Shown: positions 14,148 through 54,326, counted from the whole stretch's first letter. The stretch: 63,654 nucleotides of DNA, filler included, from Folioceros fuciformis (GCA_049999805.1; 14 parts of 14 records of this genome joined end to end with filler, not necessarily neighbours in it), one strand, 5' to 3'. Program-made: numbers and translations. Notes: generated by a model not told the origin, from the sequence alone.

Positions 14148-16839
14148 TTAACTTGCCGTGCTCTCCCCTTTTGTTCCACTACCAGCACCACTACCAGACG
14201 CAGCAGGCTTGGGGCCTGGAGATTTGGTTGGGGAGCAATGCCTCTTGGACGTTGGTTCAGCGCTGGGGCTTTGTATGCTGCCCTCTGCATCTGCACCCAG
14301 CTCCACCTCTAACCTAGTTGGACCATCGTCTAGTTTCCTGCTACTACTCTGGCCATCCACTTGAGACCCCTCCGACTCCTCCGTTTCTCTTGTGGGCGAA
14401 GAGGTCTCATTCCCGCTGCTACTGGATTCCCCACCTGCTGCTTCTGCTGCTGTTGCTGCCCCACTACCTCTCCTCTCCAGGACATCCGCCGACGCCGACT
14501 GAGTCAGTGCAAGGGAGAAACCTGGCACAGTTATTCCTCCCACTTTCCTCTTCCTGTTTACTGACCCAGTGTTTGGGCTGCCGACCAAACTGGGTGCCTT
14601 GGTTGAATCACTCTCGCCGCTTGTTGCCCTCCCGACAGGACTACCTTGATCCTGCTCCCTGGTATCTCGGACGCCCGACGACTCGCAAGCACCACCGGAG
14701 GGCCGCCTCAAATCCGAACCCAGGCTCTGGGCTTGCTCTGCTGCCTGCTGCTGCTGCTGCTGCTGCTGCTGGCTACTAGCCCCCGTTGCTACAAGTGGGG
14801 GTCTTGAGAAACTAGCGCCCATTCCATCACTAGTACGTTGCAACTGCACCTCCTTGGATCCGTTTCCAGCATCCTTAGCCCTGAAGTCCATTGCGCTCAT
14901 GAAGTTATAGCTTCCGGACACTGGTGGCTCATGGGTCGAGGGACAAGAATTGTTGCCATTACCATTACCATTCCCATTCCACAGAGACAGCTGAAAGGAT
15001 AGGCTCAAACCACTCGTGAAGCTGTCGGACGCATAGCCCCTTTGAGTCCTCTTGCCCTCCTCCTCCTCCTTGGAGGTCGCGGAGGCAGCTTTCGCACAAG
15101 CTTCAAGGTTCACCCCAAACAGCCTAGTACCAGAAGCAGTGGCTCCTCCAGAAGCTGTACTGGACTCGGCAGTAAGGCGTCTGTGCAAGCCAGAGCCCCC
15201 GTCAGCAGCATTAGCATTGTTGCCCAAAGATCCAACGCTGCCAAGGGAACCCTGAGGCTCCATCACTTCGTCCGAGGAAACGGACACCGCCCCTGGCCGA
15301 GAGTACCTGCTCACTGCTGAAAGTTGGGCCTCTGCCAAGAGCGCTGCTTCAGCGCCATTGGAACCTTTGAATGGTCCAATTTGGAACTGGCTGCCGCCAT
15401 GCGGCCTGAATCCAGCTCCAGCGCCATGAGAGAAAAGACGGGCGAACTGGGCAGCACCCGAGCTTGACCCTGGGTCGGCCGCTATGCCACCACCTTGCAG
15501 TTGCTTGCCGCTTTGGCCTTGAATAGGCCTCGACAACAAGGGAGCCCAGGGCATCGCGCCGGATGTCATCTTGGACGTGTAAGCAGAGTTGGCCTGAGAC
15601 GCGAGCAGGTGATGGTTGTTGCTGGTAGGAGCCGCCGCAGCATGACTGTTTTGGTTGAGCAGGCCTGCTGCTCCCAGCAGAGGAGGGTGTTGTAGTTGCG
15701 GGTTCTGCTGCGGAATCCCAATCCCCCAAGGGCGCAGCGCACTCCTGTCCGTCATCATATTCATGTTCGTCTGAGGGGGACGGCGACGGAAGTCGATATA
15801 GAGCTCCTGGTTAGGCCCCCTCTGGAAAGACACGATGTCTCCCGCATCCAGCTTCTTCTCCTTCACGAATCTGCTCCACCCTTTGGTAAGCACGTAGCTC
15901 TGGCTGCTGTTCCAATACGAGTACCTGAACCTCCATTGCTTGCCCGTCGCGTCCTCGAACGCCAGAGTCTGGCCAGGAGAATTGGTGGAGAGATCCAGCG
16001 GGAAGCACCTCTCAGCGTGCTGCTTTGGAATAACAAGCCTGTTCAGCTTCCCCACGTCACTGGGAGTGACTGCCTTGTCGAAGAGATTTTCCCGCACCCA
16101 GTGGGATCTGGAGGGTGGCATGGCAACCGGATCCGCAGCACCATCCTCTGCGCTGATCCGCGAGAGGCCTGCAGCCTCGGCTGCCCCTCCCTCAACTCCG
16201 GGGTAAGACAAGTGCGAGGGACTGGCAGCTGAATCAAGGGTGGAGACAAGGAAGCACAAATCAGCACTAGCTCACCAGGCATGACGTAGCGCACCGGCAC
16301 CAACACCACGGACGGACCTTGCCAGGCAAAATGAGGAAGGAGGCGTGTGTTACCTAGGAAGGAAGGCGCTGCAGTTGCACGAGAAGAAGAAGAAGAAAGA
16401 TCCTTGCTGTGGTGATGCAGCAGGAGCTGCTGCTGCTGTTGCTGCTGCTGAGCAACAAGAGACGCGCTATGGCTGTGGCTCAGCTGAAGTTGATGTTGCG
16501 TTGCTGCCCTCATGCAGAGGGCTGCCCGGCGGCTATGCTCCAGTTCCTCGTCGTAGGTGTGGCGACGGAGCATGTCCACAATCTGCTCCTTGCTATGAGA
16601 CCTGAGGAACGCTGCCTCGGGATTGGAATCGGGAACAAGAGGGAAGTTGGTCATGGCGTCCCGGCCCCGGAATTTCATGGCAGCACGATCGTAAGCCTTG
16701 GCCGCCTCCTCCTCCCTGTTGAAGGTCCCCAGCCAAACCCGCTGATGCTTCTCGTAGATTTGCGCCCCCCAGCGACCATTCGGCTGGGGCACCACCCCCC
16801 GGTACTGCGACGACGGCAGCTTCCCGTGCTCTGCCTTTC
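14148..16839 (-). CDS. RAV: RAV-family AP2 + B3 transcription factor (5' end lost in gap; one intron 16229-16353)
   Basis: AP2 domain [60 protein letters not shown]3 domain [33 protein letters not shown]...[39 protein letters not shown]; repression motif RLFGVNL. A 125-nt GT..AG phase-1 intron joins the two ORF-track frames in register. Confidence 0.93.
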
Positions 16840-16939
16840 NNNNNNNNNNNNNNNNNNNNNNNNNNNNNNNNNNNNNNNNNNNNTTAATTAATTAANNNNN
16901 NNNNNNNNNNNNNNNNNNNNNNNNNNNNNNNNNNNNNNN

Positions 16940-19830
16940 TGCTTTTGAGTGTATAGCAACCTGGATTCCTATGGTACAGAAACAAACTGGCAATTTTGTG
17001 AAGTGTTTTCGCACTGACAACGGTGGGGAGTTCATTGGACATCGATATGATGAGCTTTTTTCAGCGCATGGGATTATCCGTCATTTAGCCATTCCATGTA
17101 CTCAACAACAAAACGGTGTTGCTGAGCGTAAGAACCAGACCCTGATGGGTATGACTAGGAATATGCTTGGATGGGCAGGTTTGCCCAAACACTACTGGGC
17201 AGAAGCTATCTCAACTGCTACCTACATACTTAATAGAGTGCTNNNNNNNNNNNNNNNNNNNNNNNNNNNNNNNNNNNNNNNNNNNNNNNNNNNNNNNNNN
17301 NNNNNNNNNNNNNNNNNNNNNNNNNNNNNNNNNNNNNNNNNNGAGCTCTTTTCAAAGCATGGGATCATCCGTCAGTTAGCCATTCCATATACTCAACAAC
17401 AAAACGGTGTTGCTGAGCATAAAAACCAAACCCTAATGGGTATGACTAAGAGTATGCTTGGATGGGCAGGTTTGCCCAAACACTATTGGGCATAAGCTAT
17501 CTCAACTGCTACCTACATACTTAATAGAGTGCTGAATAATGCAGTACCTAGAAAAACTCTATATGAGGTGTTCTGGAGGAAGAAGCCGAGCTTGTTGCAC
17601 TGGCGGGCGTTTGGCTCCACAGCATATGCTTATGTCCCTAAACAGAAGAGGCGCAAGTTAGATGATAGGGCTAGACCCCTGCTTTTCCTTGGCTATTCAG
17701 AAGTCTCAAAGGCTTACAAGCTGTTTGATCCTGCAACCTATAAAGCGATTGTGGCACGAAGTGTAACCTTTGATGAACTTACTACTCCTAGAAGGCAGGC
17801 TTCCACGCAGTTTGGGACAGAGTCCACAGTTCCAGTGATTGATGAGTCACGTATATCATATGAAGAAAATAACATAGGCCCCCTACAACAAGTTGTTCGC
17901 CAACCATTAGTGCATTACCCTGATTCTGATGGCGAGAATGATCTACCCACCTTGGTTGGAGATGAGACTGGTGAAGAGACTGCAGTTGCACCACATGTTG
18001 CTCACGGTGCCTTCGATCTGAATGATGAACACTCAGAGTCCACTGGTTCTCTCCAGGATACTGATGAGATAATTGAACTGTCAGATGGTGAGTTCCCGGA
18101 TGACCGAGCAGGGAGTAGCTGCAGACGAGCTTGTTGTGGTCTCTGAGCCTAGATATCCTACATGGGAGAGGCGTTCCCGTGAACATTGAACAGAACCACC
18201 TTATAAGGCAATTGATTTTAGACAAGGTTCTCGGGCTCATGTTGCAGACTTCATAGTACCTATAGTTCGTCTGGATCCACAAACTTATGACGAGGCTGTT
18301 AATGGCCCTGACGGTTCTCACTGGCGTGCGTCCATAGACGATGAATATGCTTCTCTCATAAAAAAACAACACCTAGGAGCTTATGGATTTGCCTGTAGGA
18401 CGGAAACCTATTAGCTGCAAATGGGTGTTCAAAACAAAGTTGAAAGCAAATGGGACAATCGCCAGATACAAGTCTCGCCTAATTGCTCGTGGTTTCAGTC
18501 AAATTCCTAGCATTAACTATGGTGACACATCTTCTCTAGTGGTGAAGCCTCCCTTTTATCGGTTTCTCTTGGCGATGGCCGCAGAGTATGATCTGGAAGT
18601 TCAGCAAATCGACGTTTATACTGCCTTTCTGTATGGAGAGCTCAAGGAGACCCTGTATATGCAACAACCACTAGGGTACATTAGTCCAGAGAATGCCAAT
18701 AAAGTGTCAAGCTGCTGAAAACGATTTATGGTCTTAAGCAGTCACCTCGAGCATGGTATAAGCGGATAATGAAGTAGTTGCACCAACTTGGTTTCCTGCA
18801 GTCGCCAGCAGACACCAATGTCTTTTATTCTGCTGTTGATTCGCTGTTTGTCATCCTTGCCCTGTATGTCGATGATTGTGTGCTTCTAAGCAACAACCCT
18901 AATCAACTTCAGAAGGTGAAGGCTATGCTGCGTCAGGAGTTTGAGATGAATGACCAAGGTGATTTACCGTTTTGCTTGGGTATTCAGATCCTGCGCAACC
19001 GTTCCCATGGTCAGATCATTTTGCATCAAACAAAGTATATTAAGGAGATTCTGAAACAATTTAATTTGGATGAGGCCCGACCAGTTGCCACTCCCTCTGT
19101 AATGGGGGAGAAACTTACCTCTTCTATGTCTCCTCAGAGTGATTGTGAACTTGAGAACATGCAACTTGTTCCATATGCAGCGGCAGCTGGGTGCCTGATC
19201 TTTTTGGCAAACTGGACACGACCTGGTATCAGTTACTCTGTCTCAATTGTCTCCCAGTTCTTGAAGCCTTCTGGACGGCAGCACTGGGCAGCAGTTAAGA
19301 GGATTTACCGATATCTTAAAGGCACCATTTCTTATGGTTTGCAACACACCAATAGTGGGAGTAATAGATGTGAACTTACCTCCTTCGCTGATGTTGATTG
19401 GGCCTTTGATGCTGACACCAGGAAGAGTTTGTCTGCATATTGTTTTCTCTTGGCTTCTGGTACTGTTAGTTGGAGCTGCAAGAAGCAGACTTCTTTGGCA
19501 CTTTTGTCCACTGAAGCTAAATATAGAGCTCTCAATGATGCCTATAAAGAAGCTGAGTGGGGAAGACAATTTCTGGAGTCAGTTAATCAAGCTCAGACAA
19601 GTCCAACACTACTGCTATGTGACAATATGAGCACAATTGCCCTTGTCTCCAACCCTAGGTTTCATGCCAGAACCAAGCATATAGAACTCTATCATCACTA
19701 TATAAGGGATGCAGCTGAATGAGGCATAGTCAAGGTCGAGTATGTTAGCACACATTTAAATACTGTAGACATACTTACTAAAGGGCTCTCCAAAGCCAAA
19801 CACTTTCAACACATGGCTGCTTTAGGTCTC
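16940..19830 (+). mobile_element. Ty1/copia pol fragment (integrase-RT-RNase H), pseudogenised
   Basis: Integrase FRTDNGGEF...QQNGVAERKNQTL...YWAEA; RT KPISCKWVFKTK...YKSRLIARGFSQ, QIDVYTAFLYG, LALYVDD; RNase H FADVDWA...[31 protein letters not shown]. Several stops and frameshifts. Confidence 0.95.
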
Positions 19831-24175: not shown

Positions 24176-24423
24176 NNNNNNNNNNNNNNNNNNNNNNNNN
24201 NNNNNNNNNNNNNNNNNNNTTAATTAATTAANNNNNNNNNNNNNNNNNNNNNNNNNNNNNNNNNNNNNNNNNNNNGAACAGGTATGACCCATCAAGCAAG
24301 CCTATCAACAAGCAAGAGATGCCGATCAGTGGGGCGACACAACCTGAAACATGACGGTTGATATCTGACCAGGTCTCCTGCACCTCTGCTGGGCACCCTC
24401 CTGCCTTCGAGCAGCGGAAATGA

Positions 24424-25055
24424 TCAGGCTTCAGAGCCGTCACCAGAAGACAAGATTGACAAGCATCCTTCGTCTTGAGGTAAATCTGGCATGCTCCCTC
24501 GCAATCTGATGTTAAAATTTTGCAATTTCTGCACAAGTTTGTCCACCAGGTTATGGGACGCATGCAATTTGGCCTTGTAGAGCCAAGGGATCTGATTTCT
24601 TGTTTCTGGCAGCAAGTCCTCAACTTTGTTCTCCAACAATCTTTGGCTGTCCAGCACCAGGGACAGCAATTTCTCCACGCGTTGAACAGCAACAAAGGTC
24701 GTGTCTTCCGTACTTTGTGCTTTCGGTGTGTTTGTTTGAAAATGCCTCTTGTTGGTGGACTGATCACGTTGAGTTGGAATAGCCTGACGTTCCTGGCGTT
24801 CTGCCAAATACTTTGCGCACAAATGAGGAAGAGGTGGAGCAAAGTTTCTCCTGTTGGGCCGGAATGCTGGCTGTGACTTATAAATTCTGTGAGCCAGAAT
24901 CTGGTCAATTTCCTTTTGTCTCGCAATTTGATTGGCAATGCTGTCAACGTACACACACTGACCAGTCCTTCTCCGCGGCATGCTTGCAAAATCACTGGTG
25001 AATGTCTCCTTTTCTGCTGAGAGCAACCAGTATGTAGAGATGTATAGGTATGGGC
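24424..25055 (-). CDS. Possible coding fragment, product unknown
   Basis: Open frame of ~200 codons (MPRRRTGQCVYVDSIANQIARQKEIDQIL...VEKLLSLVLDSQRLLENKVEDLL) between N gaps. No motif recognised. Confidence 0.25.
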
Positions 25056-25561
25056 NNNNNNNNNNNNNNNNNNNNNNNNNNNNNNNNNNNNNNNNNNNNN
25101 NNNNNNNNNNNNNNNNNNNNNNNNNNNNNNNNNNNNNNNNNNNNNNNNNNNNNNNAAAACGTTCTAGGCGGAACGTGAACGGAGAATGCATGGCAAAAAG
25201 ATTGAATTAATTAAATGGCAATGGTCTCATTTGTTTATATTCCTAAACCTAATTACAAAAGGTCACTTATTTAATGGGCATAAACTGTCATCTATCGTTA
25301 ACCTAAGCAAGTATAGCTAAATAAATATATACGACAATATTTAACATCCTACGCCTGATCGGAGCTGGAGGGGAGCCCTCGAATCCATCATCGAGTTGAT
25401 TGAGTCTGACCCTCCATCCATAGCAGCAAGGAACCCCATCGCTCCTTCGTGGGACCGAAACCCAATGTCTCAACGATAGTGAGATAAGTGTGGCCACTAA
25501 AGGTGGAACCCGTCGGCAATCAGTGCCCAGGGTTTTGCCTCCATAACAGGAGACAAGATGG

Positions 25562-26505
25562 AAGATAAGGATGGCCAATGGAGGTTTTGAGGCAGTGATG
25601 GGAGAGACTAGGGAAAAATTGCAATTATGTTTTAAGCCTAGAACAGAAGAAGAGACAATGATTGATGTAAAATGCTTGATTGTTAAATCTAGAAATTTTG
25701 ATGTCATTTTGGGGACATAAGCTTTGTTCATGCATGAAGAAGGAGTGGATTTATGGACAGAGGAGTTTTACTATCGTCTAGGGTGGCGACAAGGTGAAGG
25801 AATGAGAGTAGCGACAATTCCAGTTAAGTTGCAGTTACAAGAGGACATGCAAGATGCGGTTGTAGTGAATATGACGACTTCTTGGGATGAATAGGATGAA
25901 GAAGATGAAGATGATAGATTGTGAGTTGAGCGTCATATGGATAAGTTATGTTTAAACAAATATAGTCATAACAGAGTGGGAGAAGATGCAATGAGAGAAA
26001 ATGTTGGTAGAGCATTAGCTGAAATTTTTAGAGAGCTTGAAAAACGACAAATATAGTTTCAGCTAGATGATAAAATTTGACCTTGTACAAAGGAAGCAGT
26101 TTGTAAACTTGAACCTGTGTGTAATAAACTTGTAACATTGAGTTCGTCTAAGTATGGATTGGTTGTGGTTGAGTTGTTTGCTGGAATTACATTTGGTTTG
26201 GAGGCTGTGTTGGCTGCTAGGTATGTGGTTAGATGTTACATTTATTGTGATCCAGATGAAGTTTGTTAGGCAATTGCGAAGGCAAGAGTTTTCAAATTAT
26301 GTAAAAAGTATCCTGAACAATTAAAGGTTGAAGTTGTGAAGCAAGCGTTTTCTGTCTGGTCACAGGATGTTAGGCTTACTGGATTGATACAATTTTGAGT
26401 GGAAGAGGAAATTGATCTGATAGTAGCCGGTTGGGAATGTCAAGGGCATTCAATGGCATGCAAGGGAAAGGGCTTGTTAGATTATAGGTCGGTGTTATTT
26501 TTGAC
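25562..26505 (+). pseudogene. Decayed retrotransposon pol fragment: aspartic protease C-terminal half fused in frame to a C5-cytosine DNA methyltransferase domain
   Basis: One frame with no frameshift: KIRMANGGFEAVMGET...CLIVKSRNFDVILGT (retropepsin flap and ILG motifs), an acidic linker, then GLVVVELFAGITFGLEAVLAA (motif I, 26171-26188), YIYCD (II), QDVR (III), IDLIVAGWECQGHSMA (IV, catalytic Cys 26438-26440) and GKGLLDYRSVLF (V). Seven in-frame stops at 25718, 25892, 25922, 26054, 26078, 26267 and 26396. Confidence 0.85.
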
Positions 26506-26506
26506 A

Positions 26507-27877
26507 TGTTCGCGTGAGCATAGAGAAGTGATTAGATTAGATTGAGCGTCACGGGACATGTCTTGTGAACTTGACTAGGCGACGGTTATTAGTTGTAACC
26601 GTCACCTAATCCTCTAACCTTAACCTGAACTAATAAAAGGTAATTAAATATGACCTGTCACTCCCACTCAGGTGTAGGGTTAGTGTAGTTAAGATATATA
26701 TATATATATATAAATTGCTCTCGCCTATAAACTTAAAGAAAAAGAAACTTAGAATAAGAAACTTAGAACCCTAATCTAAAGAAGTTCAACTCAAAGGGTC
26801 GTCTTCATCTTCGTCTTCGTCCTCGCGCGCCGCCACTGCCTTGCCCTTGCCGATTGCTGGATCAGGAGCTGTACTCCACTTCAGGTCCTTGCCCGACGCG
26901 CGGAGCCCGAGCCCAGCTGCGTGTTAGTAGTGCTTCACACGTCCAAGCCCCTTCGTCAAGATATCTGCGGTCATCAGCTCCGTAGGACAGTATTCCACTC
27001 TGACTGTTCCAGCATTCACCACTTCTCTGATGTAGTGGTGCTGGACTTCAACATGTTTGGTGCGCGCGTGGAACCTGGGATTCATAGTCAGTGCTATCGC
27101 ACTTTGATTATCAAGAACAGGATCACCGGCATGGTTTGTGGCACTCCAAGCTCTGTGAGAGCTCCCACTGTCCAGGTGACCTCCTTGCATGCCTCTGTGA
27201 GGCTCTTGTACTCAACTTTGGTTGAGGACAGCGCAATTGTGGGCTGCCTCCTGCTGCTCCAGCCAATGGCGCCTCCAGCAAGCAAAGTCACATAGCTGGA
27301 GATACTCTTCCTGCTATCAGAGTCTCCGGCCCAGTCTGCATCGTTGTAAGCCACCATTTGCAAAGCTTTGTGTGCTTTTGAATTGTAAAGGATGCCCCAG
27401 TCCACAGTGGCTGCAATATACCGGTACAGCCTCGTCATGAGATCATTATGCTTTGCATTCGGGTTGGAGACGAATCTTGAGGTCAGTCCATTGGTGAAGG
27501 CCAGGTCAGGCCTCGAGCCTATCATTAGATGCATGACTGACCCATTCTTGGAGGGATACTGCTCCACAATTGCTGCTTCCTCCTCAGGTATACTCCCTAC
27601 TTGAGCCACATATTTCGTGTTTTGTTCTACAGGAGTAGAAATAGGCTTGCATTTAGTCATTCCATAGCGTTCTAATATTTGCATTGCATATTTTGTTTGA
27701 TGCAGGAAGATGGTTCCTGCTTCCCGATCTCGCTGCAACTGCATGCCTAAACAAAAAGTAAGTGCCCCTGCTGCTGTTATCTTAAACTCGCTGCTCAACT
27801 GACCCTTTAGGATGAAGATCATTCTAGGCAAGTTGCTTAAGATAATAATATCATCTACATAAATGGCTAACGCCAAG
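26507..27877 (-). mobile_element. Ty1/copia 3' part: RT-RNase H, PPT and probable short 3' LTR
   Basis: LAIYVDDII...SRPDLAF...YNDADWAGDSDSRKSISSY...ALSSTKVEY; after a frameshift, [30 protein letters not shown]...TADILTKGL. Minus-strand PPT TGAGTGGGAG (26670-26661) is followed by TG at 26660. The LTR end is tentatively AACA at 26510-26507. Confidence 0.9.
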
Positions 27878-27977
27878 NNNNNNNNNNNNNNNNNNNNNNN
27901 NNNNNNNNNNNNNNNNNNNNNTTAATTAATTAANNNNNNNNNNNNNNNNNNNNNNNNNNNNNNNNNNNNNNNNNNNN

Positions 27978-40147: not shown

Positions 40148-42336
40148 TGTAGGGTTATTAAAGCCCAATGTGCTTAGGCTAATGTGTTTAGTCTAAGATT
40201 AGTGTCTAGTTAATGTGCTTAGACTAATGTTTTAGTCTAAAGATTAGTGTCTAGTTAAGTATCATTAGTTTAGATTAGCTTAAGCTAATCTGTAGGAAGC
40301 TTCTTGCGCAGCTTCCTGTGAGCTTCTCGTGAAGCTTCATAGGGAGCTCTTCTAGAGGGTATAAATACCCCCTTGAGCTCCCTTGCCAACCACTCTCAAT
40401 GTGACCTCTTTTTCTCCTCTCCTCTCTGCCTCCTCTTCTCCTCTCCTCCACCATGCTCCTCTAGTGATCCTACAAGTGGTATTAGAGCAGCTTGTGGAGC
40501 AAGACCATGAAGATGGTCATCTAAGAGGGGAAGGGGCGCCACGCAGGCGCCACCTCAATGCCATGCAGGTGCCACCTAGGCACCATGTGAGAGCCACTCG
40601 GGCGCCACCTCGGCGCCACCCAGGCACCCCTTGGGCGCCACGCGGGCTCCACCTGGGCGCCATCAGGNNNNNNNNNNNNNNNNNNNNNNNNNNNNNNNNN
40701 NNNNNNNNNNNNNNNNNNNNNNNNNNNNNNNNNNNNNNNNNNNNNNNNNNNNNNNNNNNNNNNNNNNCGATTGACGAGTGCCGGAAAGTGAACAAATCGT
40801 AGACGCCGGGAGCGAGTGTGTGGGCGCCGTATTGACCGCTGCTAAAGAAGTCAGGATCTCGATCAGACGTAGGAGGACATTCCTGTTATGAGCGACAGAG
40901 GCCCAAGTGGTGGACATACGATTCGGAAGAAGTTGTGAGGGTAACATGTAGAATCTACATTTCATTTCGACCAATTTCAAACTAGCCTTTTGGTTGATTT
41001 GGATCGATTTTGAAGCATGATGTCCTCAGAAAACGTCATGTTCAATATCGAGAAGTTAGATGGTACTAACTTCCCATTCTGGAAAGAACAAGTGTATAAT
41101 GTTCTAGTACAGAAGAAGCAGATCAAGCCCATCAAGCTGCTAGGAGTGAAACCTGTTAGCATGACTCAGGATGAGTGGCAGGATCTATATGAGCTTGCTA
41201 GGTCTACCATCATGCTAACAGTGTCGAAGTCGGTCTACTTCAACGTGAAAGACAAGACCACAAGTTTCGAGCTATGGCAGAAGCTGTGTGACTTGTATGA
41301 GAAGCAAAGTGCAGCTTCTCAGGTGTATTGGTTGAAACAACTGGTGGACTTGAAGATGAAGGAAGGGACGAGGATGTCCGATCATCTGAATGAGTTCAAT
41401 ACCATTTTCAGCCAGCTCTCATCTCAAGGTATCTCGTTCCTAGATTCCGTGAGAGCTATGTTTCTGTTGGTCACATTACCAGAGAGCTGGGACACCTTCC
41501 GTACGGCTCTGAGTAATTCCGCTCCTGCCAGTGGTCTTACCGTTGTAAATGTAGAAGGTAGCCTGTTAACAGAGGAGGTGAACAGGAAGAATATGGAACC
41601 TTCGAAAGGTTCTAATGCCCTCATGGTGAGAGGAAGGTCCACTTCAAAGGGGAAGTACGAGGAGCGAAGTTCTTCCCGTAGCAAATCTCGTAGTCGTAAC
41701 AATGTTGAGTGTTACCATTGTCACAAGAAGGGTCACATCAGAAGGGACTGCGAGAAGTTCAAGAAGGAAAAAGGCAAGGAGAAGAAGCAGAGCGACAACA
41801 AGGCAGATTCGAGTATCGAACGTGATGAGGTGAACTCTGTTGACGATGAAGATGTTCTTATCTCTTCTTCTTTTGGTTTTGCACAACTGACAGCCATTGA
41901 GAGTCACTTATTCTCTAATTGGATAATTGACTCTGGAGCATCTTTCCATGTTACTCCGCATAGGAAGTGGTTTAGCACTTATGATGCTACTAGGAAAGGA
42001 TGTGTTCGGCTTGGAAATAACTACGCGTGCGAGATAGCAGGCGTTGGTGATGTGCAGCTGAAGTTCGACAACGGATCTTCATTCACACTAAAGGATGTCA
42101 GGCATGTTCCGAAGTTGACCAAAAGCATGATTAGCGCAGGGCAGTTGGATGACGCTGGCTACCATTGGTGGTTTGGAGATCGTTCTTGGAAGACCTCCAA
42201 AGGTTCTCTTGTGATAGCTCGTGGATCGAAGTGTGGCACTTTGTACTCACTTCAGGTAACCACTGTCAAGGATCATGTGATTTGTGTAGGGGAACAGCCA
42301 AGTGTTTCCTTGTGGCATAGTCGGTTAGGACATATG
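40148..42336 (+). mobile_element. Ty1/copia element, 5' part: LTR, tRNA-iMet PBS and gag-pol
   Basis: The LTR ends ...CCTACA at 40474 (start TGTAGG at 40148 or TGTAGGA at 40291). TATAAATA at ~40360; PBS TGGTATTAGAGC at 40477-40488, one mismatch to the canonical TGGTATCAGAGC. Confidence 0.9.
41017..42336 (+). CDS. Copia gag-pol polyprotein, intact up to the gap
   Basis: IEKLDGTNFPFWK; gag core; CYHCHKKGHIRRDC knuckle; protease WIIDSGASFH; pre-integrase LWHSRLGHM. No stops in 440 codons. Confidence 0.93.
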
Positions 42337-42436
42337 NNNNNNNNNNNNNNNNNNNNNNNNNNNNNNNNNNNNNNNNNNNNTTAATTAATTAANNNNNNNN
42401 NNNNNNNNNNNNNNNNNNNNNNNNNNNNNNNNNNNN

Positions 42437-42602: not shown

Positions 42603-44624
42603 TGTCTATACAATTCATAAATATTTATATTAGTTTATTTTAAAGAACTTACATATGTAGTAATTATATGAACGAATAATTTATTTACAAAGTTTTATGT
42701 TCTAGATTATTTAAAAAATAGTCCTACCTATTTGACATATAATTATCACATACATGGTGTATACTTCAAAAGTGATATATAACTACAACATAGATGACTT
42801 CATATTTCATGCATATTCATAACATGATTCATTCAGATTTGACACCTATTTTTAAGTAGATAAGGACAAATCTTATGATCTATATTACCATGACTTACAT
42901 GGACTNNNNNNNNNNNNNNNNNNNNNNNNNNNNNNNNNNNNNNNNNNNNNNNNNNNNNNNNNNNNNNNNNNNNNNNNNNNNNNNNNNNNNNNNNNNNNNN
43001 NNNNNATATTACCATGACTTACATGGACTCTCCTAAGGTGTCCTTGGGTAGATAAGTTTGTTTATCATGTTTATTGTATGGCGTACTCACAATGTTTCTT
43101 TATGTATGGTTTTAGAGAACTCAACTAAATTGGAAGTTAAAAGCCCAAGATCACTTCAAGCGTGCCTACAAATGGGCATAGATCCCAAGGAATTGATCCA
43201 CAGGTAATCAATTATATGATATAGAATCAAAGTATAATATATTGCCTTTGTGCCATAGACAAATAGATCAATTGTAGTTAAGAAGGCAAGCTATGTATGG
43301 CTATTTGTCCTATAATAGGATGCCCATGTATTAGAAACTACGATTTTTTTGGTGAAAAAGGATTGTCCAGCGAACTTCAAAAATTGAAGTACACACATTA
43401 CGAAAGCCAGAGAAGAGGTAACAGATATTTTTATAACAAATTTGATAGTATTTCAAAGATATAAATATACTATATTGTTCAACTATGCATGTGTTTGGCT
43501 TGTATTATAAAATCATGAAGCCCTCCTAAACTTTTTTGACTTAGGTAGAGAAATAGGAGACTATCATTGAACTTATATAATTTGTAAGTCAAAAGTCCCA
43601 TGTCTATCATTGAGGCTCCTCTTGTTGTCTCCTCTTTGACTAATTTGGTACGCCAATTCTATAATTGATCCTCCCACCCTCCTTCTCTCTCTTCTTTTTC
43701 CTTCTCTATTTAATCCAAAATTCATCATGGTAGTGTTGTATAGGTAAGAACTAGACATTATGAGTCCTAATGCTTAAGTTATTGACATAAGAATAAAATA
43801 AGATTGGCTTATCATGGAGAGCCTCAAAGGGAGGAGGTAGGCCATTGTAGACTTTTCTTTTTTGGTGATTTTTGTTTTTCCTTTTTTGTGAGAATTGAGG
43901 GACGAGAGGGAATGAAGTTGCTATAGTATATAGGATACATGGAACCAATAAACCAAAAGTGACAATACAGGAGGAATAAGATAAAAAGTCAAGGAGAGAT
44001 AGGTAACGCATTAAGGTTCACCATCCAGAGAACCACTTTAATACACCACATTGATGTGTCAAGCTTCTCTCATTCAAGGGCACTCCAAAGGCATCGGTAG
44101 GAAGGTCCGAGGCACGACAAGTGCAAACAAAGTACATGGGATCCAATAGCATTAGAAATTCCCCATTTGGGCTATTCTAATGTCGCTTGATTCTGCAGGC
44201 CTCTATAGTTTGGGGGCCCAAAGTAAGAAGAGATTTGGCCTCTGCCACTCTTGGCAACCCAATAGAGAGAGATCACTAGCGCTCCAGATCATTTCGTCGA
44301 AGGAGGAGCAAGCAAGAGATTAGAACAGCATGGGACCAAGAGGAAATCGCATGAAGCGTAGAAGTTGAGGAAAATCCCAAAAGCAGCGGCAAGAACGATG
44401 CACATGCTGAGGGGATTGGGGGCTGCATTTGACTCATGTGCTCTTGATGTTGAGATTGGGGGCTGCATTTGACTGCATCACACTCCTATTTGTTAGATAC
44501 ACAGCAGTTGCAATAGCCTCACCCNNNNNNNNNNNNNNNNNNNNNNNNNNNNNNNNNNNNNNNNNNNNTTAATTAATTAANNNNNNNNNNNNNNNNNNNN
44601 NNNNNNNNNNNNNNNNNNNNNNNN

Positions 44625-45773
44625 CTCCATCTGTCCATACACAACAAGGGCCTCTTGGCCGAGTCCTTGCTGTGCATACCCNNNNNNNNNNNNNNNNNNN
44701 NNNNNNNNNNNNNNNNNNNNNNNNNNNNNNNNNNNNNNNNNNNNNNNNNNNNNNNNNNNNNNNNNNNNNNNNNNNNNNNNNGGCTGTCCATGTCACCACA
44801 TCCTTCGAGGCCATGCCGTCGAAAACCTGGCGGGCATCTTCCAGCTCACCACATTTTGCATACATGTCCACCAGGCAGTTTCCCACGACTACATCATCCA
44901 GGAGTTCTCTCTTGACAATCTGTGAGTGAAGCTCCCTGCCCTTCTGCAACGCACCAGTGCTTGAACACGCCTTCAGAAGGCAAGCAAAAGTAACACGGTC
45001 AGCCAAAACGAGGCCCGCCTTCTCCATTTGTGCATATACAACAAGCGCCTCTTGGCCGAGTCCTTGCTTTGCATACCCAGCAATCAGGGCATTCCATGTC
45101 ACCACATCCTTCGCATCCATCCTGTCAAAAACCTGGCGTGCATATTCCAGCTCACCACATTTTGCATACATGTCCACCAGGCAGGTTCCCACCAGTACAT
45201 CATCCAGCAGACCTCTGTGGACAATCTGTGAGTGAAGCTCCCTGCCTTTCTGCAAGGCACCAGTACTTGCACACGCCTTCAAAAGGCAGGCAAAAGTAAC
45301 ACGGTCAGCCACCACCAGGCCCGCCTCCTCCATTTGTCCATACACAACAAGTGCCTCTTGGCCGAGTCCTTGCTGTGCATACCCAGCGATCAGGACCGTC
45401 CATGTCACCACATCCTTCGTGTTCATGCTATCAAAAACCTGGCGTGCATCTTTCATTCGGCCACATTTTGCATACATGTCCACCAAAGAGCTGTTAACAA
45501 ACAAGTCAGTACGGAAGCCACTGCGCAACACGTCGCGGTGCACTGTTCTGCCAGATTCTAAGTCGCCAGCAAATGCACAAGCTTGAAGGGCGGCTACAAA
45601 GATATAACCATTCGCCTTCACTTCTGACCTACGCATTTCATGGTACAGTTGTATGGCCTCCTTCGGCTTCCCGTGCTTCGCATGTGCAGAGATTATGGAA
45701 AACCACATGAAGACATCCGGTTTCCATACCCTGTTGAACACATCCATCGCCTCCTTTAGCCTACCTCCACATG
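44625..45773 (-). CDS. PLS-class PPR protein fragment, close paralogue of 47309-50257 (both ends in gaps)
   Basis: Repeating P-L-S triplets VVTWxxLIAGYAQQGLGQEAL / VTFACLLKAC.STGALQKGRELHSQI / LVDMYAKCG in an open frame. Confidence 0.9.
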
Positions 45774-47308
45774 NNNNNNNNNNNNNNNNNNNNNNNNNNN
45801 NNNNNNNNNNNNNNNNNTTAATTAATTAANNNNNNNNNNNNNNNNNNNNNNNNNNNNNNNNNNNNNNNNNNNNAGGTAATCGAGTGTAATATAATATATA
45901 AATATATACATAAGTTATATACATAAAAATTTACTTTTCTCTTATGGTATTTTTCATTAATACCGAAAATATATATAAACATATGTATATATTGGTTTAG
46001 ATCTGATATTAAATCTCAAGTGATGTTAAAATAATATTACGGACGGAGGTTCCATTATTGTACTCAATACTCTGTTCTATCTCACATGGTCTTCAATATC
46101 CCATATTTGTATGATTATATTATTTAAAATTAATAAATATTTATGAAACTCTATTTTATGAGTTTATTTTATTACTTGTATTTTTANNNNNNNNNNNNNN
46201 NNNNNNNNNNNNNNNNNNNNNNNNNNNNNNNNNNNNNNNNNNNNNNNNNNNNNNNNNNNNNNNNNNNNNNNNNNNNNNNNNNNNNNGTATTGTTGGGATC
46301 ACTTTATCACCAAACAGCAGTACTGTACGTGGATCATATCCATGGCGAGCTATGTCCTCCAATCACGTTCGGGGGCATCGCCAGGTGAACAAAGTTGGAG
46401 ATCCTCTCCATAATTGAATAAAAAGGTGTTTCCTTCCTCCAGACCACCTCTGGCGCCTGAAGCAAGCTGGCCTGCCGGATTGGCCGACCAGGAGCATGAA
46501 GCGCATCCAGAGGCCCAGCGGATCAGCTGACGTTTTCTGGCCTTCGGAAAGCGCCAGTGAAGAATTGGAGGAAGAGACCGCGGTACAGGATCGGGCTCAA
46601 AACATAGGCCTCGGCGATGGCAGGCGAGCTGCCTGGTGGACGTGCACGCAAAGTGAGTAAGTTAGGCCAAGCGGGTAGGAAGGGTGTCAGTCAAGCCAAG
46701 CGGTCAGGGAGGGTGAGTAAGTCAGGCATATCGGTTAGGAAGGAAGGAAGGACGGGACTCCCTTTGCAGAGCGTGTCTGCTACGCAATCTCAGCGGCCGC
46801 GCGCTCCCTCCAGACTCATCTTCCCTCCGCTTTGGACTGGCTACGGCCTCAGTCCTTCGTCCCGCTTCCCGCGTTCCCTTTGCCACTCGAGATTTGACGG
46901 CGGATGGATGCTTACAGTCGTCGTAGCTGGTCTTCTGGCTGCGCGTCTGTTGCGGACGTGAGATCAACGAGGGAAGGGAAGCATCCTGCTGCCGCCGTTG
47001 GTGCGCGGGGATCCCTGGCAGGGAGTGGTCTTCGGTGCGCTGCCTGGATGTTAGGGCACGTCGATCGGGTCGGGCAATGTGCCAGTTTAAGTTATCCCTG
47101 TCGGAAACGGAACCTTTTCCTCGCCATGAAAACGAACAGCTCGACCTACACCACTCGACGAAAGGAAACTTGGACGTGGAGAGAAATGAATATGGCGCAA
47201 ACTCAGATTCCCATCTGTAGCCCGTTCGTGCTCTCCTTCTTGCTCCATCTACGAGAATTTATGAGGTGAATTTCCGTGACCGTGGAGCCCGTTAGCGATG
47301 CCTGAACC

Positions 47309-50257
47309 ATGGCCACAGCGAAGGTGGAAGCTTCGTTACTCCTCTTTGCACGACATTGGCTTTCGGGCCAGACTCAACAAATAGGTGCGTGTACGGGGAT
47401 TGAAAGTCGAGATGCTGCGAACCTCATCTTAGGGAGTCGATCCCTGGCAAGCAAAGCCTCCAGGTGCAGCAGTGTCAGGCGGCCAGCACTTCCACCTCTA
47501 AGAGATTCCGTGAGCAGGGACGGGTTCCCCAGCGATGGTCGTTGCCATGAGCGGGATCAGGAGCACTTGTGGCAGCAGTTTTTCTTGGACCCTACCATGT
47601 GGTGGGACAACAGGCGAGATAACAAGCGATTCCATTCTCCTCACTTCCGGCGCAAGGGGTCCGGCGAGGTGCTGTTGTTGGACAACATGTTTAAGCCAAC
47701 TTGGGTTGATGAGCAGCTCATTTCCTTGGATATGCAAGTTGGCCGTGACGCCTCTCCTTCCGAGTGGAGCACTGAAGATAATTTTGAACCTGGAAGGCGT
47801 GCAGGCTCGGGAATGGGGGCCAGGTGTAGCAGTGTTACCGTGAGCACGTTGTGTCGGCAGGGGAGGCTTTCTGCTGACGTTCGGGTCCCCGAAACTCTAG
47901 CGGACACAGACTCTCCCGTTTCTCAGTTTTTTTTTTTTTTTGTCCTGAAACTGTGTACGGCCAAGAAGGATTTGGTTTTGGGGCGGCGAGTTCATGATCT
48001 CATTATTAAACTTGGATACGAGTCGAATGCATACCTGGGGAACCATATCTTGCGCATGTACGCATGTGGGGGCAGACTAGAGGAGGCCAAGGATGTGCTC
48101 ACCAGGGTGGGGAAACCAGATGCCTTCATGTGGTCTTCCATAATATCCGCATACGCTAAGCAAGGGAAACCCAATGAAGCAATGCAACTTTATCATGAGA
48201 TGCGTAGGTCAGGAGTTAAGGCGGATGCCCACGTCTTCGTAGCTGCCCTTCAGGCTTGTGCATTCGCTGCTGACTTGGAATCTGGAAGAAAAGTGCACCA
48301 CGATGTGGAACACAGTGGCATTCCAACTAACTTGTTTATCGGGAGCTGCCTGGTGGACATGTATGCAAAATGTGGAAAAATGAAAGATGCACAGAAGGTC
48401 TTTGATAGCATGACCACAAAGGATGTGGTGATATGGAATGCCCTGATTGCTGGGTATGCACAGCAAGGACTGGGCCGAGAGGCGCTTCTAGTGTATGGGC
48501 AAATGGGCGAGGGGTGCCGCATTTTGGCTAACCATGTTACTTTTGCTTGCCTTCTGAAGGCCTGCGGAAGCACGGGTGCCTTACAGAAGGGCATGCAATT
48601 GCATTCACAGATTGTGGAAAAGGGACTGCTGGATGATGTCGTGGTGGGCAACAGCCTGGTGGACATGTATGCAAAATGTGGCAAAATGGAAGATGCACGC
48701 AAGGTTTTTGACAGCGTGAAGAGAAAGGATGTGGTGACATGGACTGCCCTGATATCTGGCTATGCACAGCAAGGACTCGGCCAAGAGGCTCTTGTTGTGT
48801 ATGAAAGAATGGAACAGGAGGGCCTGGTTGTGGCTAACCCTGTTACGTTTGCTTGCCTCTTGAAGGCCTGTGGAAGCACTGGTGCCTTACAGAAGGGCAG
48901 GAACCTGCACTCACAGATAGTGGGAAAAGGACTGCTGGATAACGTAGTTTTAGGCAACTGCCTGGTCGATATGTATGCTAAATGTGGTGAACTGGAAGAA
49001 GCACGCCAGGTTTTTGACAGCATGAACACAAAGAATGTGGTGACGTGGAATACACTCTTAACTGGATATGCACAGCAAGGACTTGGCCATGAGGCGCTTG
49101 CTGTGTACGAGCGGATGGAGCAGGAGGGCCTGATTGTGTCTGACGATGTTACCTTTGCCTGCCTCTTGAAGGCCTGTGGAAGCACTGGTGCCCTACAGAA
49201 GGGGAGGCAGCTGCACTCACAGATAGTGGAGAAAGGACTGCTGGATAACGTAGTCTTAGGCAACTGCCTGGTTGATATGTACGCAAAATGTGGCGATTTG
49301 GAAGATGCACGCCAGGCCTTCGAAAGCATGAACACAAAGGATGTGGTGACATGGAATGCCCTGATATCTGGATATGGCACTTGTGATGAAGGTCACAGGG
49401 CGCTAGCTTGTTTTGAGGAGATGTTGGCCGCCGGCATTCAGCCTAATGCAGTTACTTTCACTTGCCTTTTAGTAGCCTGCAGTCACGGGGGACTTGTCCA
49501 TGACGGTCGCAAGCACTTCAATTCCATGGCGGAACAGCATGGCATCACACCTACTCTTGAGCATTATAATTGCATGATTGATCTCCTTGGACGTGCAGGC
49601 CAGTTAGATGCGGCACAGAAGAAGCTATTGCAATGTGAGGGCCAAAGTAATGTTGTGGGTTTAATGTCTCTGTTGAACGCCTGTAAAATTCACGGGGATT
49701 TGGAGAGGGCGATGTGGTGTTTTCAAAGCATTCTTAGGCTGGACCCCAAGCAGGCGTCCGCATATGTGCTTATGGCCAACGCCTTTGCAGATGCTGGCAG
49801 GTGGACCGATGTAGACAGGATTGAAGCACAAAGATCAGCAGCAGGAGCTAACAAGAAGCCTGCAATGGCAACCATTGAGGTGAAAAATCAGGTACACAGA
49901 TTCTTGGTGGGAGAAAGGAGAGAGGATATTGCGCTTAAGGTAGAGAGTACGAATGCACGCCTGAAGCAGGAAGGAGGCCACGTACCAATCACAAAGTTGG
50001 TGCTGAAGCCAATGTCAGAGAAGGAAAAGGAAGATGTGCTATGTGGGCACGCTGAAAAGCTAGCTCTGGCGTTTGGTCTTTTGAACACTCCGAGTGGGAC
50101 CCCTCTGGTGGTGACCAAGAATCTGCGCATGTGCAGTGACTGCCACAGTTCCACGGAGATCATGTCAAGGCTTGGACAAAGAGACATCGTGGTGAGGGAT
50201 GGGTACCGTGTGCATCGATTCGCTGCTGGTTGTTGCAGTTGTAAAGGTCGACCGTGA
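47309..50257 (+). CDS. 982-aa PLS-PPR protein with E1/E2 and KP-type DYW domain ending in GRP (candidate organellar U-to-C editing factor), with N-terminal OSB-like PDF motif
   Basis: Intronless ORF with a transit-peptide-like N-terminus and ~17 PLS motifs (VDMYAKCG every 306 nt). DYW domain: KKPAMATIEV (49853), HAEKLA (50048), KNLRMCSDCH, CSCKGRP*. Confidence 0.95.
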   Translation: MATAKVEASLLLFARHWLSGQTQQIGACTGIESRDAANLILGSRSLASKASRCSSVRRPALPPLRDSVSRDGFPSDGRCHERDQEHLWQQFFLDPTMWWDNRRDNKRFHSPHFRRKGSGEVLLLDNMFKPTWVDEQLISLDMQVGRDASPSEWSTEDNFEPGRRAGSGMGARCSSVTVSTLCRQGRLSADVRVPETLADTDSPVSQFFFFFVLKLCTAKKDLVLGRRVHDLIIKLGYESNAYLGNHILRMYACGGRLEEAKDVLTRVGKPDAFMWSSIISAYAKQGKPNEAMQLYHEMRRSGVKADAHVFVAALQACAFAADLESGRKVHHDVEHSGIPTNLFIGSCLVDMYAKCGKMKDAQKVFDSMTTKDVVIWNALIAGYAQQGLGREALLVYGQMGEGCRILANHVTFACLLKACGSTGALQKGMQLHSQIVEKGLLDDVVVGNSLVDMYAKCGKMEDARKVFDSVKRKDVVTWTALISGYAQQGLGQEALVVYERMEQEGLVVANPVTFACLLKACGSTGALQKGRNLHSQIVGKGLLDNVVLGNCLVDMYAKCGELEEARQVFDSMNTKNVVTWNTLLTGYAQQGLGHEALAVYERMEQEGLIVSDDVTFACLLKACGSTGALQKGRQLHSQIVEKGLLDNVVLGNCLVDMYAKCGDLEDARQAFESMNTKDVVTWNALISGYGTCDEGHRALACFEEMLAAGIQPNAVTFTCLLVACSHGGLVHDGRKHFNSMAEQHGITPTLEHYNCMIDLLGRAGQLDAAQKKLLQCEGQSNVVGLMSLLNACKIHGDLERAMWCFQSILRLDPKQASAYVLMANAFADAGRWTDVDRIEAQRSAAGANKKPAMATIEVKNQVHRFLVGERREDIALKVESTNARLKQEGGHVPITKLVLKPMSEKEKEDVLCGHAEKLALAFGLLNTPSGTPLVVTKNLRMCSDCHSSTEIMSRLGQRDIVVRDGYRVHRFAAGCCSCKGRP

Positions 50258-52006: not shown

Positions 52007-54326
52007 CTTTAATTAATATTAAACTAATCACCCAACCCTATGGCCTGGTACCGAACCTAAACCTTCCCAGGTCTGGGACCAAACCTATACCCACTCTTAT
52101 AACCAAACCAACTATTTCCTGGTCAATTAACTTAATTAGCACAAAGAAAAATAGGAAAAATGACCAGAAAATCAAGGAAAATTAGGGAAAATAAGTTGAA
52201 AAAGAAAACCAAACCATACCACTATTAACCCTTTTTCAACCAAAACAAACTACTACCCCAAACTTTGGAGGTTCACAACTACCTAGTGGTTACAACAGCT
52301 TATGGTTGCAACCACTTAACCACCTAACCACCTAGCCTATATAAAGGCTTGTACTCTTTACTTTCTTAATTTAATTCTCATTGTAGCACTTCATGCCTAA
52401 GAGCTATGATTCTCATCAGCTTCCCCCGCACGTAATGCCACAAGATCCTGGACCATCACGGGAGACTAGGTGTTCCAAGGGAACTGGAATAATCTGAGCT
52501 CCCATTGCTCCATTAAATACCCCGTTGCCACGATGTAGGGCGCAGAGTTGGGGTAGGCCGTAGTCCAGATGTGTTCCTCACTCAACTTCCAAGGAGTCCC
52601 TTCCTCAAGAAATCTTCTCGGCGCNNNNNNNNNNNNNNNNNNNNNNNNNNNNNNNNNNNNNNNNNNNNNNNNNNNNNNNNNNNNNNNNNNNNNNNNNNNN
52701 NNNNNNNNNNNNNNNNNNNNNNNNTATGCTGCAATCGTTTGAAGTCTATTACACCCACGATTGCTTATGATGCTGGGTTGCGGCGGCTAGATTTTGGGGA
52801 GTGGGACTCCCTAAGCTCCGTCCTATAGTGGCCACACTTATCCCATTGTCGTTAGTATAGAATGGGTTTCGATCCCACCAAAGAGTGGCTGGTGTTCCCA
52901 ATCTATAGTGTATGATATGACTCCTCTTGACTTCACAACCCCACAACTCTTACATTTGACCCAACAACTCTTGTCCATCCAACTGCTGACTCTCTACTCC
53001 TAACCATGCGACCCCTAGTTAGGACTTGTTTAGCTGCAAACAGATAAGGTCTATCACCCCTGACCTGACCACACAACCTCCCACTTCACACTTCTCATGC
53101 CTCACAACCAACTTCCATCCAAATCACTTTTGACCTTGCTACCTTCGGTCAGAGGTACTACTCAACTTTCGACAGACTTGCTGTGGAGTGAAATATTGTG
53201 TCCAGGGACGCCATGAGGTCCACATTCACTCTCTATGTCGTTGTAGTCGTGGGATTCGCTCCCAAGGGAATGATTTGTGCCAAGTAACATGGGCTTCTAC
53301 TACTATTGACTCTTACCTAGGTCAGGATTCATCCACTACCGTCCCTACTACCTACTAGCTCAACTACCACTACCCTCAGGTAGCCCAGCTACCTCGGTCC
53401 CTACTCTACGACTCCGATTCCTACTCCACGACTACGTTCATTGGCTCCACGACCGAAAGTGACCTCCACGACTGTGGTGGGTCCCACCCAAAACCCTAAC
53501 TAATGTTTTTCAGCGCATGCGCCGCCGCAGGTTTCCGCTCCGGGTTCTTGCTCCAGGGCTTCTAGACTCACAGTTCTGGTCTTATTGGGTGATAAACACA
53601 CATACAGAGACCAACCCTTGGGAAGCAAGGCCTCGTACGAATATTTATTGATAAATAAATATTAATTATAGTTCATTGTTATATACCAATGGTTAATTAC
53701 GTAAGCAAACCCTAGTGACAGTTATTTCCGGTTGTAACCGTTCATGGGACTTAGATTCAATATCCTTGTTTCCCCTTCATTGTAATGTATTCTGTTTTGT
53801 AAGTTCAGCCGAACATGTGATTTGCCAATCTCATTTCCACAAACGTATCAGCATTACTCCCTACACATACAACGCACACACAAGAACTCTAATACACATT
53901 CCTTTCTCCTAGACCGGGTTCCAAATGCTTCTAATCCCCCAGCAACGGTCACAGATCTCTAGAAATCTCTCAGCTACTCTTCACAATCTCTTGCACTCTC
54001 CAACAATCCTCTACGGTCTTTCACAACCATCCAGAAAACACTTGAAAACCCTTCAACGTTCCGGCCAAATCCCGACGATCCTCCACAACCTTCCTGAATC
54101 TTCCAACAAGCTCATACAGTTTTCCAATTAGTTCAGTTAGCTCTTTGTCTCCATCTCAGTCCTCTGCCTCACACCTCATTCCGCATTCAGTGCTTGGGCC
54201 ACGCTTTTCTCTCTTTCTCTTCTTCTCTTCTCAACTCCCTCAACTCACTCAGCTCACTCGTTCAATCTTGCTCACACGCTTACTCAATTTGAATTTTGGA
54301 ATGCAGCAGTTAGCTCAAGGAATAGG

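Follow-up and report, generated by a model that had tools for sequence, protein, structure and literature searches.

A stretch of DNA of 63,654 nucleotides from Folioceros fuciformis (GCA_049999805.1), here called the window, contains at 25559-26539 a decayed coding fragment, hereafter the relic, which is almost certainly a remnant of the Pol polyprotein of a Ty3/gypsy retrotransposon carrying its own DNMT3-type cytosine methyltransferase ('Gypsy-DNMT3'). The window is composed of 14 unplaced scaffolds (1.1-11.6 kb) chained by spacers of the form N44-TTAATTAATTAA-N44 (e.g. at 24176-24275 and 27878-27977), and adjacency across these spacers is therefore meaningless. Each of the 14 scaffolds also contains one 100-N gap, as listed in the table of N-runs. 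The spacer sequences delimit the unplaced scaffold that carries the relic to 3.6 kb (24276-27877); its 100-N gap lies at 25056..25155, and the gap-free DNA surrounding the relic consists of a 2.7-kb contig only (25156-27877). When the window was searched by tblastn with the related proteins described below, a single copy of the relic was found.

The segment 25562-26505 on the plus strand reads as 314 codons in one frame, without a frameshift and with exactly 7 stops. This matches the first-pass annotation, which was made from the sequence alone and had reported about 315 codons in a single unshifted frame with 7 stops; the motif strings quoted there are all present in the relic, at the positions listed below. 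The 5' part of the relic encodes the second, C-terminal half of a retropepsin-like protease and a conserved stretch behind it (25559..25831, plus strand, stop at 25718), in which the strings IRMANGG (25565-25585) and FDVILGT (25697-25717) can be read. In the tblastn analysis this part aligned with residues 1055-1144 of the relative P0004 (25559-25831) and residues 702-799 of P0060 (25565-25858), and residues 306-597 of P0002 aligned in a single frame with 25562-26476. Since the Pfam domain Asp_protease_2 occupies residues 263-358 of P0002 and the match begins at residue 306, the window holds only the second half of the protease. The catalytic D(T/S)G is absent from the relic, the homology beginning at 25559, downstream of the DTGAQ/DSGAQ of the relatives. 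A decayed form of the DTG (LNDSEIS) that had appeared in the MAFFT alignment A1 was rejected as spurious, as it lies inside an unrelated repeat at 25347-25543.

The protease part is followed by a variable acidic linker (25832..26107, plus strand) with four of the stops (25892, 25922, 26054 and 26078) and an acidic run at 25886-25915; in the relatives the lengths of this linker vary, and alignment A1 contains no conserved columns in it. The remainder of the relic (26108..26539, plus strand, stops at 26267 and 26396) corresponds to the N-terminal part of a putative DNMT3-type C5 cytosine methyltransferase, namely the first ~130 of ~340 domain residues. It includes motif I for binding of S-adenosylmethionine (SAM) (VELFAGITFG, 26168-26197), motif II (YIYCD, 26237-26251), motif III (SQDVR, 26360-26374), motif IV, whose catalytic Cys lies within WECQ (IVAGWECQGHS, 26420-26452), and the helix after motif IV (26471-26539), which begins with GLLDYRSVLF (26471-26500). 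Both motif I in the form F-x-G-x-x-x-G and the catalytic Cys of motif IV align to the corresponding columns of the family. Residues 1272-1403 of P0004 match 26108-26500 with 44% identity, and the matches of P0044 (residues 972-1093) and P0016 (residues 670-801) reach 26539, past the end set in the first-pass annotation. Motifs VI (ENV), VIII, IX and X, which the relatives possess, are absent from the relic because its coverage stops at 26539. The relic is thus composed of a C-terminal protease half, an acidic linker and methyltransferase motifs I to IV/V.

To define the relatives of the relic we used P0001, a read-through of 25400-26620 (plus strand) with an X at each stop. A phmmer search with P0001 against 1.84e9 representative proteins gave 359 matches at E<=1e-3, 81 at E<=1e-10 and 2 at E<=1e-30, the best having an E-value of 1.7e-32. 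The family analysis was based on 212 fetched proteins, drawn from the best 150 of these 359 matches and from further, index-limited searches; of the proteins fetched first, 155 matched P0001. Six of the listed matches cover the protease part alone (e.g. P0046, 7.5e-13). In a profile comparison by hhalign, residues 247-372 of P0001 aligned with columns 66-195 of the 523 columns of A2, an alignment of 18 full methyltransferase domains from intact relatives, with 99.8% probability and an E-value of 5.5e-28. The similarity of the relic to this family is thus far beyond chance.

The arrangement of the relic recurs among its relatives. A protease part followed by a methyltransferase part in the same order (query positions ~50-150 and ~240-372) was found in 29 of the 155 fetched proteins that match P0001, which bears out the junction between a retropepsin-like half and a methyltransferase that had first been proposed. 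The upstream part was recognized by Pfam as Asp_protease_2 or gag-asp_proteas in P0002, P0021, P0044 and P0060, and P0060 combines the protease with a near-full DNA_methylase domain (profile 3-322 of 324, E 3.5e-15). The proteins P0044 (2188 residues) and P0157 (2327 residues), whose source contigs measure 6.8-11.9 kb, contain the Pfam domains zf-CCHC (530-547), Asp_protease_2 (796-888), DNA_methylase (978-1226) and RVT_1 (1421-1575), followed in their C-terminal part by RNase H (1638-1766) and integrase (1895-2061). By this domain order, P0044 and P0157 are Ty3/gypsy Pol polyproteins in which a methyltransferase has been inserted between the protease and the reverse transcriptase, in line with the long terminal repeat (LTR), probably Ty3/gypsy, lineage suggested by the first-pass annotation.

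To classify the architectures, phmmer was run on the 212 family proteins with the domains of P0044 and P0016 as queries, and the protease (PR), methyltransferase (MT), reverse transcriptase (RT), RNase H (RH) and integrase (IN) parts were ordered. Orders of the PR-side type were found in 38 of the 212 proteins: PR-MT in 26, PR-MT-RT-RH-IN in 4, PR-MT-RT in 1, MT-RT in 4, MT-RT-RH in 2 and MT-RT-RH-IN in 1. Thus, copies that link the methyltransferase to both protease and RT do exist, as the first-pass annotation required. A second architecture, in which the methyltransferase lies between RNase H and integrase, often with a PHD finger next to it, was present in 63 proteins; examples of the order RT-RH-MT-IN-PHD are P0016, P0049, P0053, P0070 and P0075, of which P0070 also has a G-patch. 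The methyltransferase stands alone in 100 proteins, and the remaining 11 comprise 8 with the protease alone, one MT-RH, one IN-PHD and one with no match. From 172 N-terminal methyltransferase segments a phylogeny was built with FastTree, which has 132 columns only and is hence poorly resolved; in this tree one change between the two architectures suffices. A clade of 102 rows contains all 54 RH-side rows and 0 of the 31 PR-side rows (Shimodaira-Hasegawa-like support 90). The relic falls outside this clade, without a place in any well-supported small clade, and its top identity, 45%, is to the PR-side protein P0004.

The named members of the family are Closterium NIES-53/54, Cymbomonas tetramitiformis and Monoraphidium neglectum, all of them green algae, and the chlorophytes Cymbomonas and Monoraphidium belong to the RH-MT-IN-PHD group. 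The search thus shows a family that is broad in green algae and has two separable architectures (PR-MT-RT and RT-RH-MT-IN-PHD), for which we found no description elsewhere. The Closterium gene models P0024 and P0278 combine copia-type domains (rve, RVT_2) with a protease-methyltransferase segment; this probably reflects nested insertions or chimeric gene models rather than a methyltransferase borne by copia elements. Searches of environmental data added no members: a scan of metagenome DNA with P0004 yielded 26 stretches matching the pattern, none of which was confirmed, and a scan with the degenerate pattern V-A-G-W-E-C-Q-G-x-S-x-A-G yielded 0 stretches. In the ESM Atlas, residues 1050-1650 of P0004 gave a best score of 0.82, which is the level of shuffled proteins, and one DNA_methylase cluster ('commonest Streptophyta') was not used.

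The type of the methyltransferase was assessed with A2 as a profile. Against the sequences of the PDB, this profile matched DNMT3A best (3.8e-22), followed by DNMT3B/3C (about 1e-19 to 1e-16), plant DRM (2.6e-11 to 1.9e-8) and M.HhaI (about 1e-8), and no DNMT1 chain was found at E<=0.01. Modelling of P0033 by AlphaFold2 from the A2 alignment gave a mean predicted local distance difference test score of 81.9, and a Foldseek search with this model returned as top matches exclusively the catalytic domains of DNMT3A/B/C (E 8.5e-16, target template modelling scores 0.77-0.82). Both the profile and the model thus indicate that the methyltransferase of the family is of the DNMT3 type at the family level, in a comparison that spanned DNMT3, DNMT1, DRM and bacterial enzymes. 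Like the host enzymes DNMT3 and DRM of animals and plants, it has the same catalytic fold, these being its best matches in sequence and structure; unlike them, it lacks PWWP, ADD and UBA companions and has a protease and an RT as neighbours. The family alignments contain motifs I, IV, VI (ENV-like) and VIII (AHRLR) and a C-terminal ERE..G..MD block, and all 18 sequences of A2 share the Cys and Gln in motif IV as well as the motif VI Glu. This conservation of residues suggests that the intact copies encode working enzymes.

The family deviates from related enzymes at the residue that precedes the catalytic Cys. A Pro at this position is canonical and near-universal in C5 methyltransferases, and in DNMT3 and DRM motif IV has a PC-N form, whereas WECQ or WPCQ is found in the family of the relic. 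Motif IV was readable in 166 of the 212 proteins and took the forms WECQ (87), WPCQ (49), FECQ (9), FPCQ (9), WSCQ (5) and others (7). A Glu-Cys in the catalytic loop thus prevails among the fetched members of the family, a feature of which we found no description elsewhere.

Several observations weigh against the assignment of the relic to a Gypsy-DNMT3 element. Firstly, the Pfam family DNA_methylase (PF00145) matched the fragment over motifs IV-V only, with 17.3 bits (E 0.0034), which is below the gathering cut-off of 22 bits, and no Pfam protease family matched the fragment at all. The Pfam check proposed in the first-pass annotation therefore failed for the fragment itself, but it succeeded for intact relatives, which pass the PF00145 cut-off (P0060, 56.7 bits; P0044, 46.1 bits; P0004, 45.5 bits). 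Secondly, the relic has WECQ in place of the canonical Pro-Cys; a Glu before the catalytic Cys is also found in 96 of the 166 relatives in which the motif is readable, and the Pro is kept in 58 of them. Thirdly, no RT, RNase H, IN or LTR is present on the 2.7-kb contig of the relic, and the retrotransposon context is therefore deduced from the relatives alone. Against this stand the E-values, the conserved order of the parts and the fact that the protease half and the methyltransferase share one frame in the relic, as expected for a Gypsy-DNMT3 element that encodes both in the same open reading frame (ORF). Taken together, the sequence comparisons leave us with very little doubt that 25559-26539 represents a Gypsy-DNMT3 Pol relic.

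The copy itself is dead, as the first-pass annotation had recognized from its stops, and it is additionally cut at both ends. It is non-functional because of its 7 stops and because it is without RT, RNase H, integrase and LTR; the active site of the protease and methyltransferase motifs VI-X are likewise missing. In the intact relatives, a single polyprotein has the order gag (zinc knuckle), aspartic protease, DNMT3-type methyltransferase, RT, RNase H and integrase. Because the enzyme domain of intact copies still contains motif I for SAM binding, the catalytic Cys in motif IV, the glutamate of ENV and later motifs, the enzyme is most likely made with Pol. The methyltransferase would then be translated as part of Pol and subsequently either be released by the protease or be active inside Pol, and it may methylate cytosines of the element's own new DNA or of nearby host DNA.

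The relic is flanked by unrelated repeat elements and thus belongs to a nested cluster of transposon fragments. On the left lies a fragment of a very high-copy repeat (25347..25543), which was delimited by contig depth and by the many loose contig ends at 25347 and 25543. It should be noted here that the sequencing runs were used as assembled contigs, so that depth means contig depth, and that the comparison was confined to the contig of the relic. In the two DNA runs, the summed contig depth was about 7.5e4-2.7e5 in the bins of 25338-25519 and 2.0e4-3.5e4 in those of 25520-25610, compared to 1e2-5e2 elsewhere. The fragment is the 3' end of the repeat, ending in ...CCTCCA, and other copies extend 5' of 25347. 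Partial copies are located at 52822-52898 and 57180-57229, both on one other scaffold. When 25156-25700 was scanned for Rfam families and tRNAs, no meaningful match was obtained for the repeat, which could be the end of an LTR or of a short interspersed nuclear element (SINE).

On the right, the methyltransferase homology stops at 26539 and is followed by ~380 bases of intervening DNA with a (TA)n run (26540..26920) and by an unrelated Ty1/copia RT-RNase H fragment (26921..27877, minus strand), which was identified by ORFs and the Pfam family RVT_2 and is truncated where the scaffold ends. The RVT_2 match covers 27097-27876 on the minus strand (2.3e-12, profile 164-243 of 244). One contig of run X1 is unbroken over 26569-27184 and thus extends into the copia part. 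The intervening DNA probably represents the 3' untranslated or LTR side of the adjoining copia fragment, the LTR assignment being deduced. Judged from translations only, further Ty1/copia pieces are present on other scaffolds at 16971-19722 (plus strand), 41014-42384 (plus strand), 57365-59038 (plus strand) and 60061-60762 (minus strand). The pieces at these sites comprise integrase-RT-RNase H, gag-protease and integrase-RT, and one ORF resembles an endonuclease of the long interspersed nuclear element (LINE) type.

To identify the host we looked for cellular genes in the window and for the locus in sequencing runs. A different scaffold contains a pentatricopeptide repeat (PPR) gene of the PLS type with a DYW-type deaminase domain (47306-50257, plus strand, 983 codons uninterrupted). 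Its best named relatives, with up to ~50% identity, belong to a lycophyte and to ferns, conifers and mosses, unnamed records reaching 64%, and the C-terminal end of its DYW-type domain reads ...CSCKGRP rather than ...DYW. A DYW-type PPR gene with land-plant relatives marks the assembly as that of an embryophyte. A second PPR fragment is located on another scaffold (44569-45825, minus strand). Judged from translations only, two adjacent ORFs at 14148-16891 (minus strand) appear to encode an AP2 and then a B3 domain; they resemble a transcription factor of the RAV type and have long tails of low complexity.

Two DNA runs with one species label contained 0.46 and 0.42 of the words sampled from the stretch of the relic. 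The repeat at 25347-25543 dominates these two runs and recurs in a run of another study with the same species label. Contigs of the right flank of the relic locus have a depth of 36-68. In the methyltransferase part, 7-10 distinct contigs that are 80-99% alike were found at single sites, which indicates that a diverged multi-copy family is present in the sample. Longer diverged copies with 79-89% identity are represented by contigs of 2344 bases (25673-25805 and 26155-26287), 602 bases (25548-26051) and 882 bases (26007-26276). No RNA run was among the listed sources of the words of the stretch. Run X4, which is guessed to be RNA, was placed solely on the high-copy repeat and on parts of the copia fragment, and is silent on expression of the relic. 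The differences of run X3 from 25156-27877 were chiefly C>T (132 places) and G>A (116 places), in many cases shared by every contig at a site; X3 thus resembles a bisulfite- or enzyme-converted library made from the same sample, and it may record the methylation state of such relics. The observed/expected ratio of CpG was 0.52 in the relic, 0.43-0.61 in the copia fragments and 0.56-0.57 in the host genes, and is thus in no way specific to the relic.

Residence of the relic in the embryophyte genome must be weighed against the possibility that the same type of relic lies on a 3.6-kb scaffold derived from a contaminating green alga, for example a zygnematophyte. Several findings count against residence in the plant. 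As noted above, every named relative is a green alga; among the 212 fetched proteins (the best 150 of 359 matches and index-limited searches) no named land-plant protein was found, and the same protein collection includes proteomes of ferns, lycophytes, conifers and mosses. The scaffold is small and unplaced and carries no host gene, and contaminants tend to gather on such scaffolds. The three long diverged contigs have a depth of 6.4-9.5 compared to 36-68 for the flank, i.e. 4-8 times lower, so that the copies may come from more than one genome. At sites such as 25958, 25980 and 26459, none of the contigs of run X1 has the letter of the window. Moreover, the relic abuts the high-copy repeat at 25543/25544, where an assembly chimera is possible.

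Other findings count against an algal contaminant. The relic adjoins the high-copy repeat, which exceeds all other sequence placed from the two DNA runs in abundance by a wide margin, and this repeat also occurs on a different scaffold within the window and in the run of another study with the same species label. The contigs that flank the locus have an ordinary depth, the nearest algal or unnamed proteins share only about 40-45% identity with the relic, and nested, decayed fragments of transposable elements (TEs) are typical of large repeat-rich genomes. We therefore regard contamination by an alga as unlikely. The first-pass annotation had placed the element 'in a land plant'; this claim is supported by the embryophyte marker on another scaffold and by the sequencing runs, but the contig of the relic itself provides no proof of it. 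Given that the PPR marker is on another scaffold and that only green algae occur among the named relatives, the relic is likely, yet unproven, to reside in an embryophyte genome, and it most likely sits in repeat-rich DNA of an embryophyte source.

A second alternative is that the relic derives from a host DNMT3 or DRM gene as a processed pseudogene and came by chance to lie beside an unrelated protease fragment. The DNMT3 type of the domain and its lack of introns would fit this explanation. It is nevertheless highly improbable, since the protease and methyltransferase parts share one frame, the identical order at the junction is seen in 29 of 155 relatives, and the matches, down to E-values of 1e-32, are to retrotransposon polyproteins; a phmmer search of the PDB with the fragment alone gave M.HhaI as the best match (E 0.52) and no DNMT3A or DRM2 chain. 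In addition, the relic has the WECQ/FECQ type of motif IV that is shared by the 96 family members mentioned above, and not the PC form of the host enzymes. Chance resemblance in decayed AT-rich DNA, for which the 7 stops and the sub-threshold Pfam score might be cited, is refuted by the E-value of 1.7e-32 in a database of 1.84e9 proteins, the hhalign probability of 99.8% and the match of two independent parts in conserved order, and can be dismissed.

Based on the present data, we thus consider it probable that both parts of the interpretation hold, namely that the relic is a fragment of a Gypsy-DNMT3 Pol and that it resides in a plant genome. The first-pass annotation mentioned DNMT-carrying retrotransposons from dinoflagellates and charophytes, and a precedent, the closest system described, is indeed on record: in KnitGypsy-Dnmt3 of the charophyte Klebsormidium nitens, the Pol of a Gypsy-type retrotransposon includes an intron-free DNMT3-type domain (de Mendoza et al. 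2018, PMC5890265). As this Gypsy-Dnmt3 element is already published, the novelty of the relic is smaller than the first-pass annotation implied. In the only published assay of KnitGypsy-Dnmt3 no methylation was seen, an outcome that its authors called inconclusive, and SymbioDIRS-Dnmt3 of Symbiodinium performed de novo CG methylation in yeast (PMC5890265). The same paper proposes roles of the kind outlined above, together with the unproven idea that such TE-encoded methyltransferases shape the way in which the host epigenome treats the element. The relic and its family resemble KnitGypsy-Dnmt3 in having an intron-free DNMT3-type methyltransferase in the gypsy Pol of a streptophyte, in a motif order that is not rearranged (unlike that of DRM), and in the catalytic residues conserved in intact copies. 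They differ in that the host of the relic is apparently an embryophyte, the copy is a dead fragment, and a Glu mostly precedes the catalytic Cys in its family; the comparison is one of descriptions, and no K. nitens sequence was among the fetched relatives (the best 150 of 359 matches and index-limited searches).

Other elements are more distant. SymbioDIRS-Dnmt3 and SymbioLINE-Dnmt of Symbiodinium (PMC5890265) likewise are retrotransposons that encode C5 methyltransferases, but they belong to the DIRS and LINE classes and to another host kingdom, and their acquisition is stated to be independent. EpiLTRs, reported from Euglena and Cymbomonas, are LTR retrotransposons with a DNMT4-like cytosine methyltransferase (bioRxiv 10.64898/2026.05.21.726589), and Cymbomonas tetramitiformis occurs in both sets. 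The DNMTs of EpiLTRs are reported to be sister to DNMT4 and are accompanied by an adenine methyltransferase and a chromodomain, whereas the enzymes of the family of the relic are DNMT3-like and are combined with a protease, or with integrase and a PHD finger. Within the literature searched, the only hosts from which DNMT3-type elements have been reported are dinoflagellates and Klebsormidium (PMC5890265), and in passages of PMC12344493 and bioRxiv 10.64898/2026.05.21.726589 TE-embedded DNMT3 is cited only 'in streptophytes and dinoflagellates', with PMC5890265 as the source. A full-text literature search covering main texts found no report of a DNMT3-carrying gypsy element in an embryophyte. 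The relic may therefore be the first such element in a land plant.

Retrotransposons that carry a methyltransferase reverse the usual picture in which the host silences the transposon. The value of the relic in this respect is that of a marker rather than an active system. A more far-reaching scenario, which we put forward tentatively and consider doubtful, is that the embryophyte lineage still harbours multi-copy gypsy elements with a DNMT3-type enzyme between protease and RT that are intact and possibly active, that were inherited from streptophyte-algal ancestors or gained from algae, and in which WECQ would be a working variant of motif IV. If the relic is truly of land-plant origin, such elements crossed the boundary between algae and land plants or entered land plants later, and there would be a concrete sequence family to seek in the genomes of hornworts, lycophytes, ferns and mosses. 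If intact and active copies exist, TE-encoded de novo methylation would operate inside land plants.

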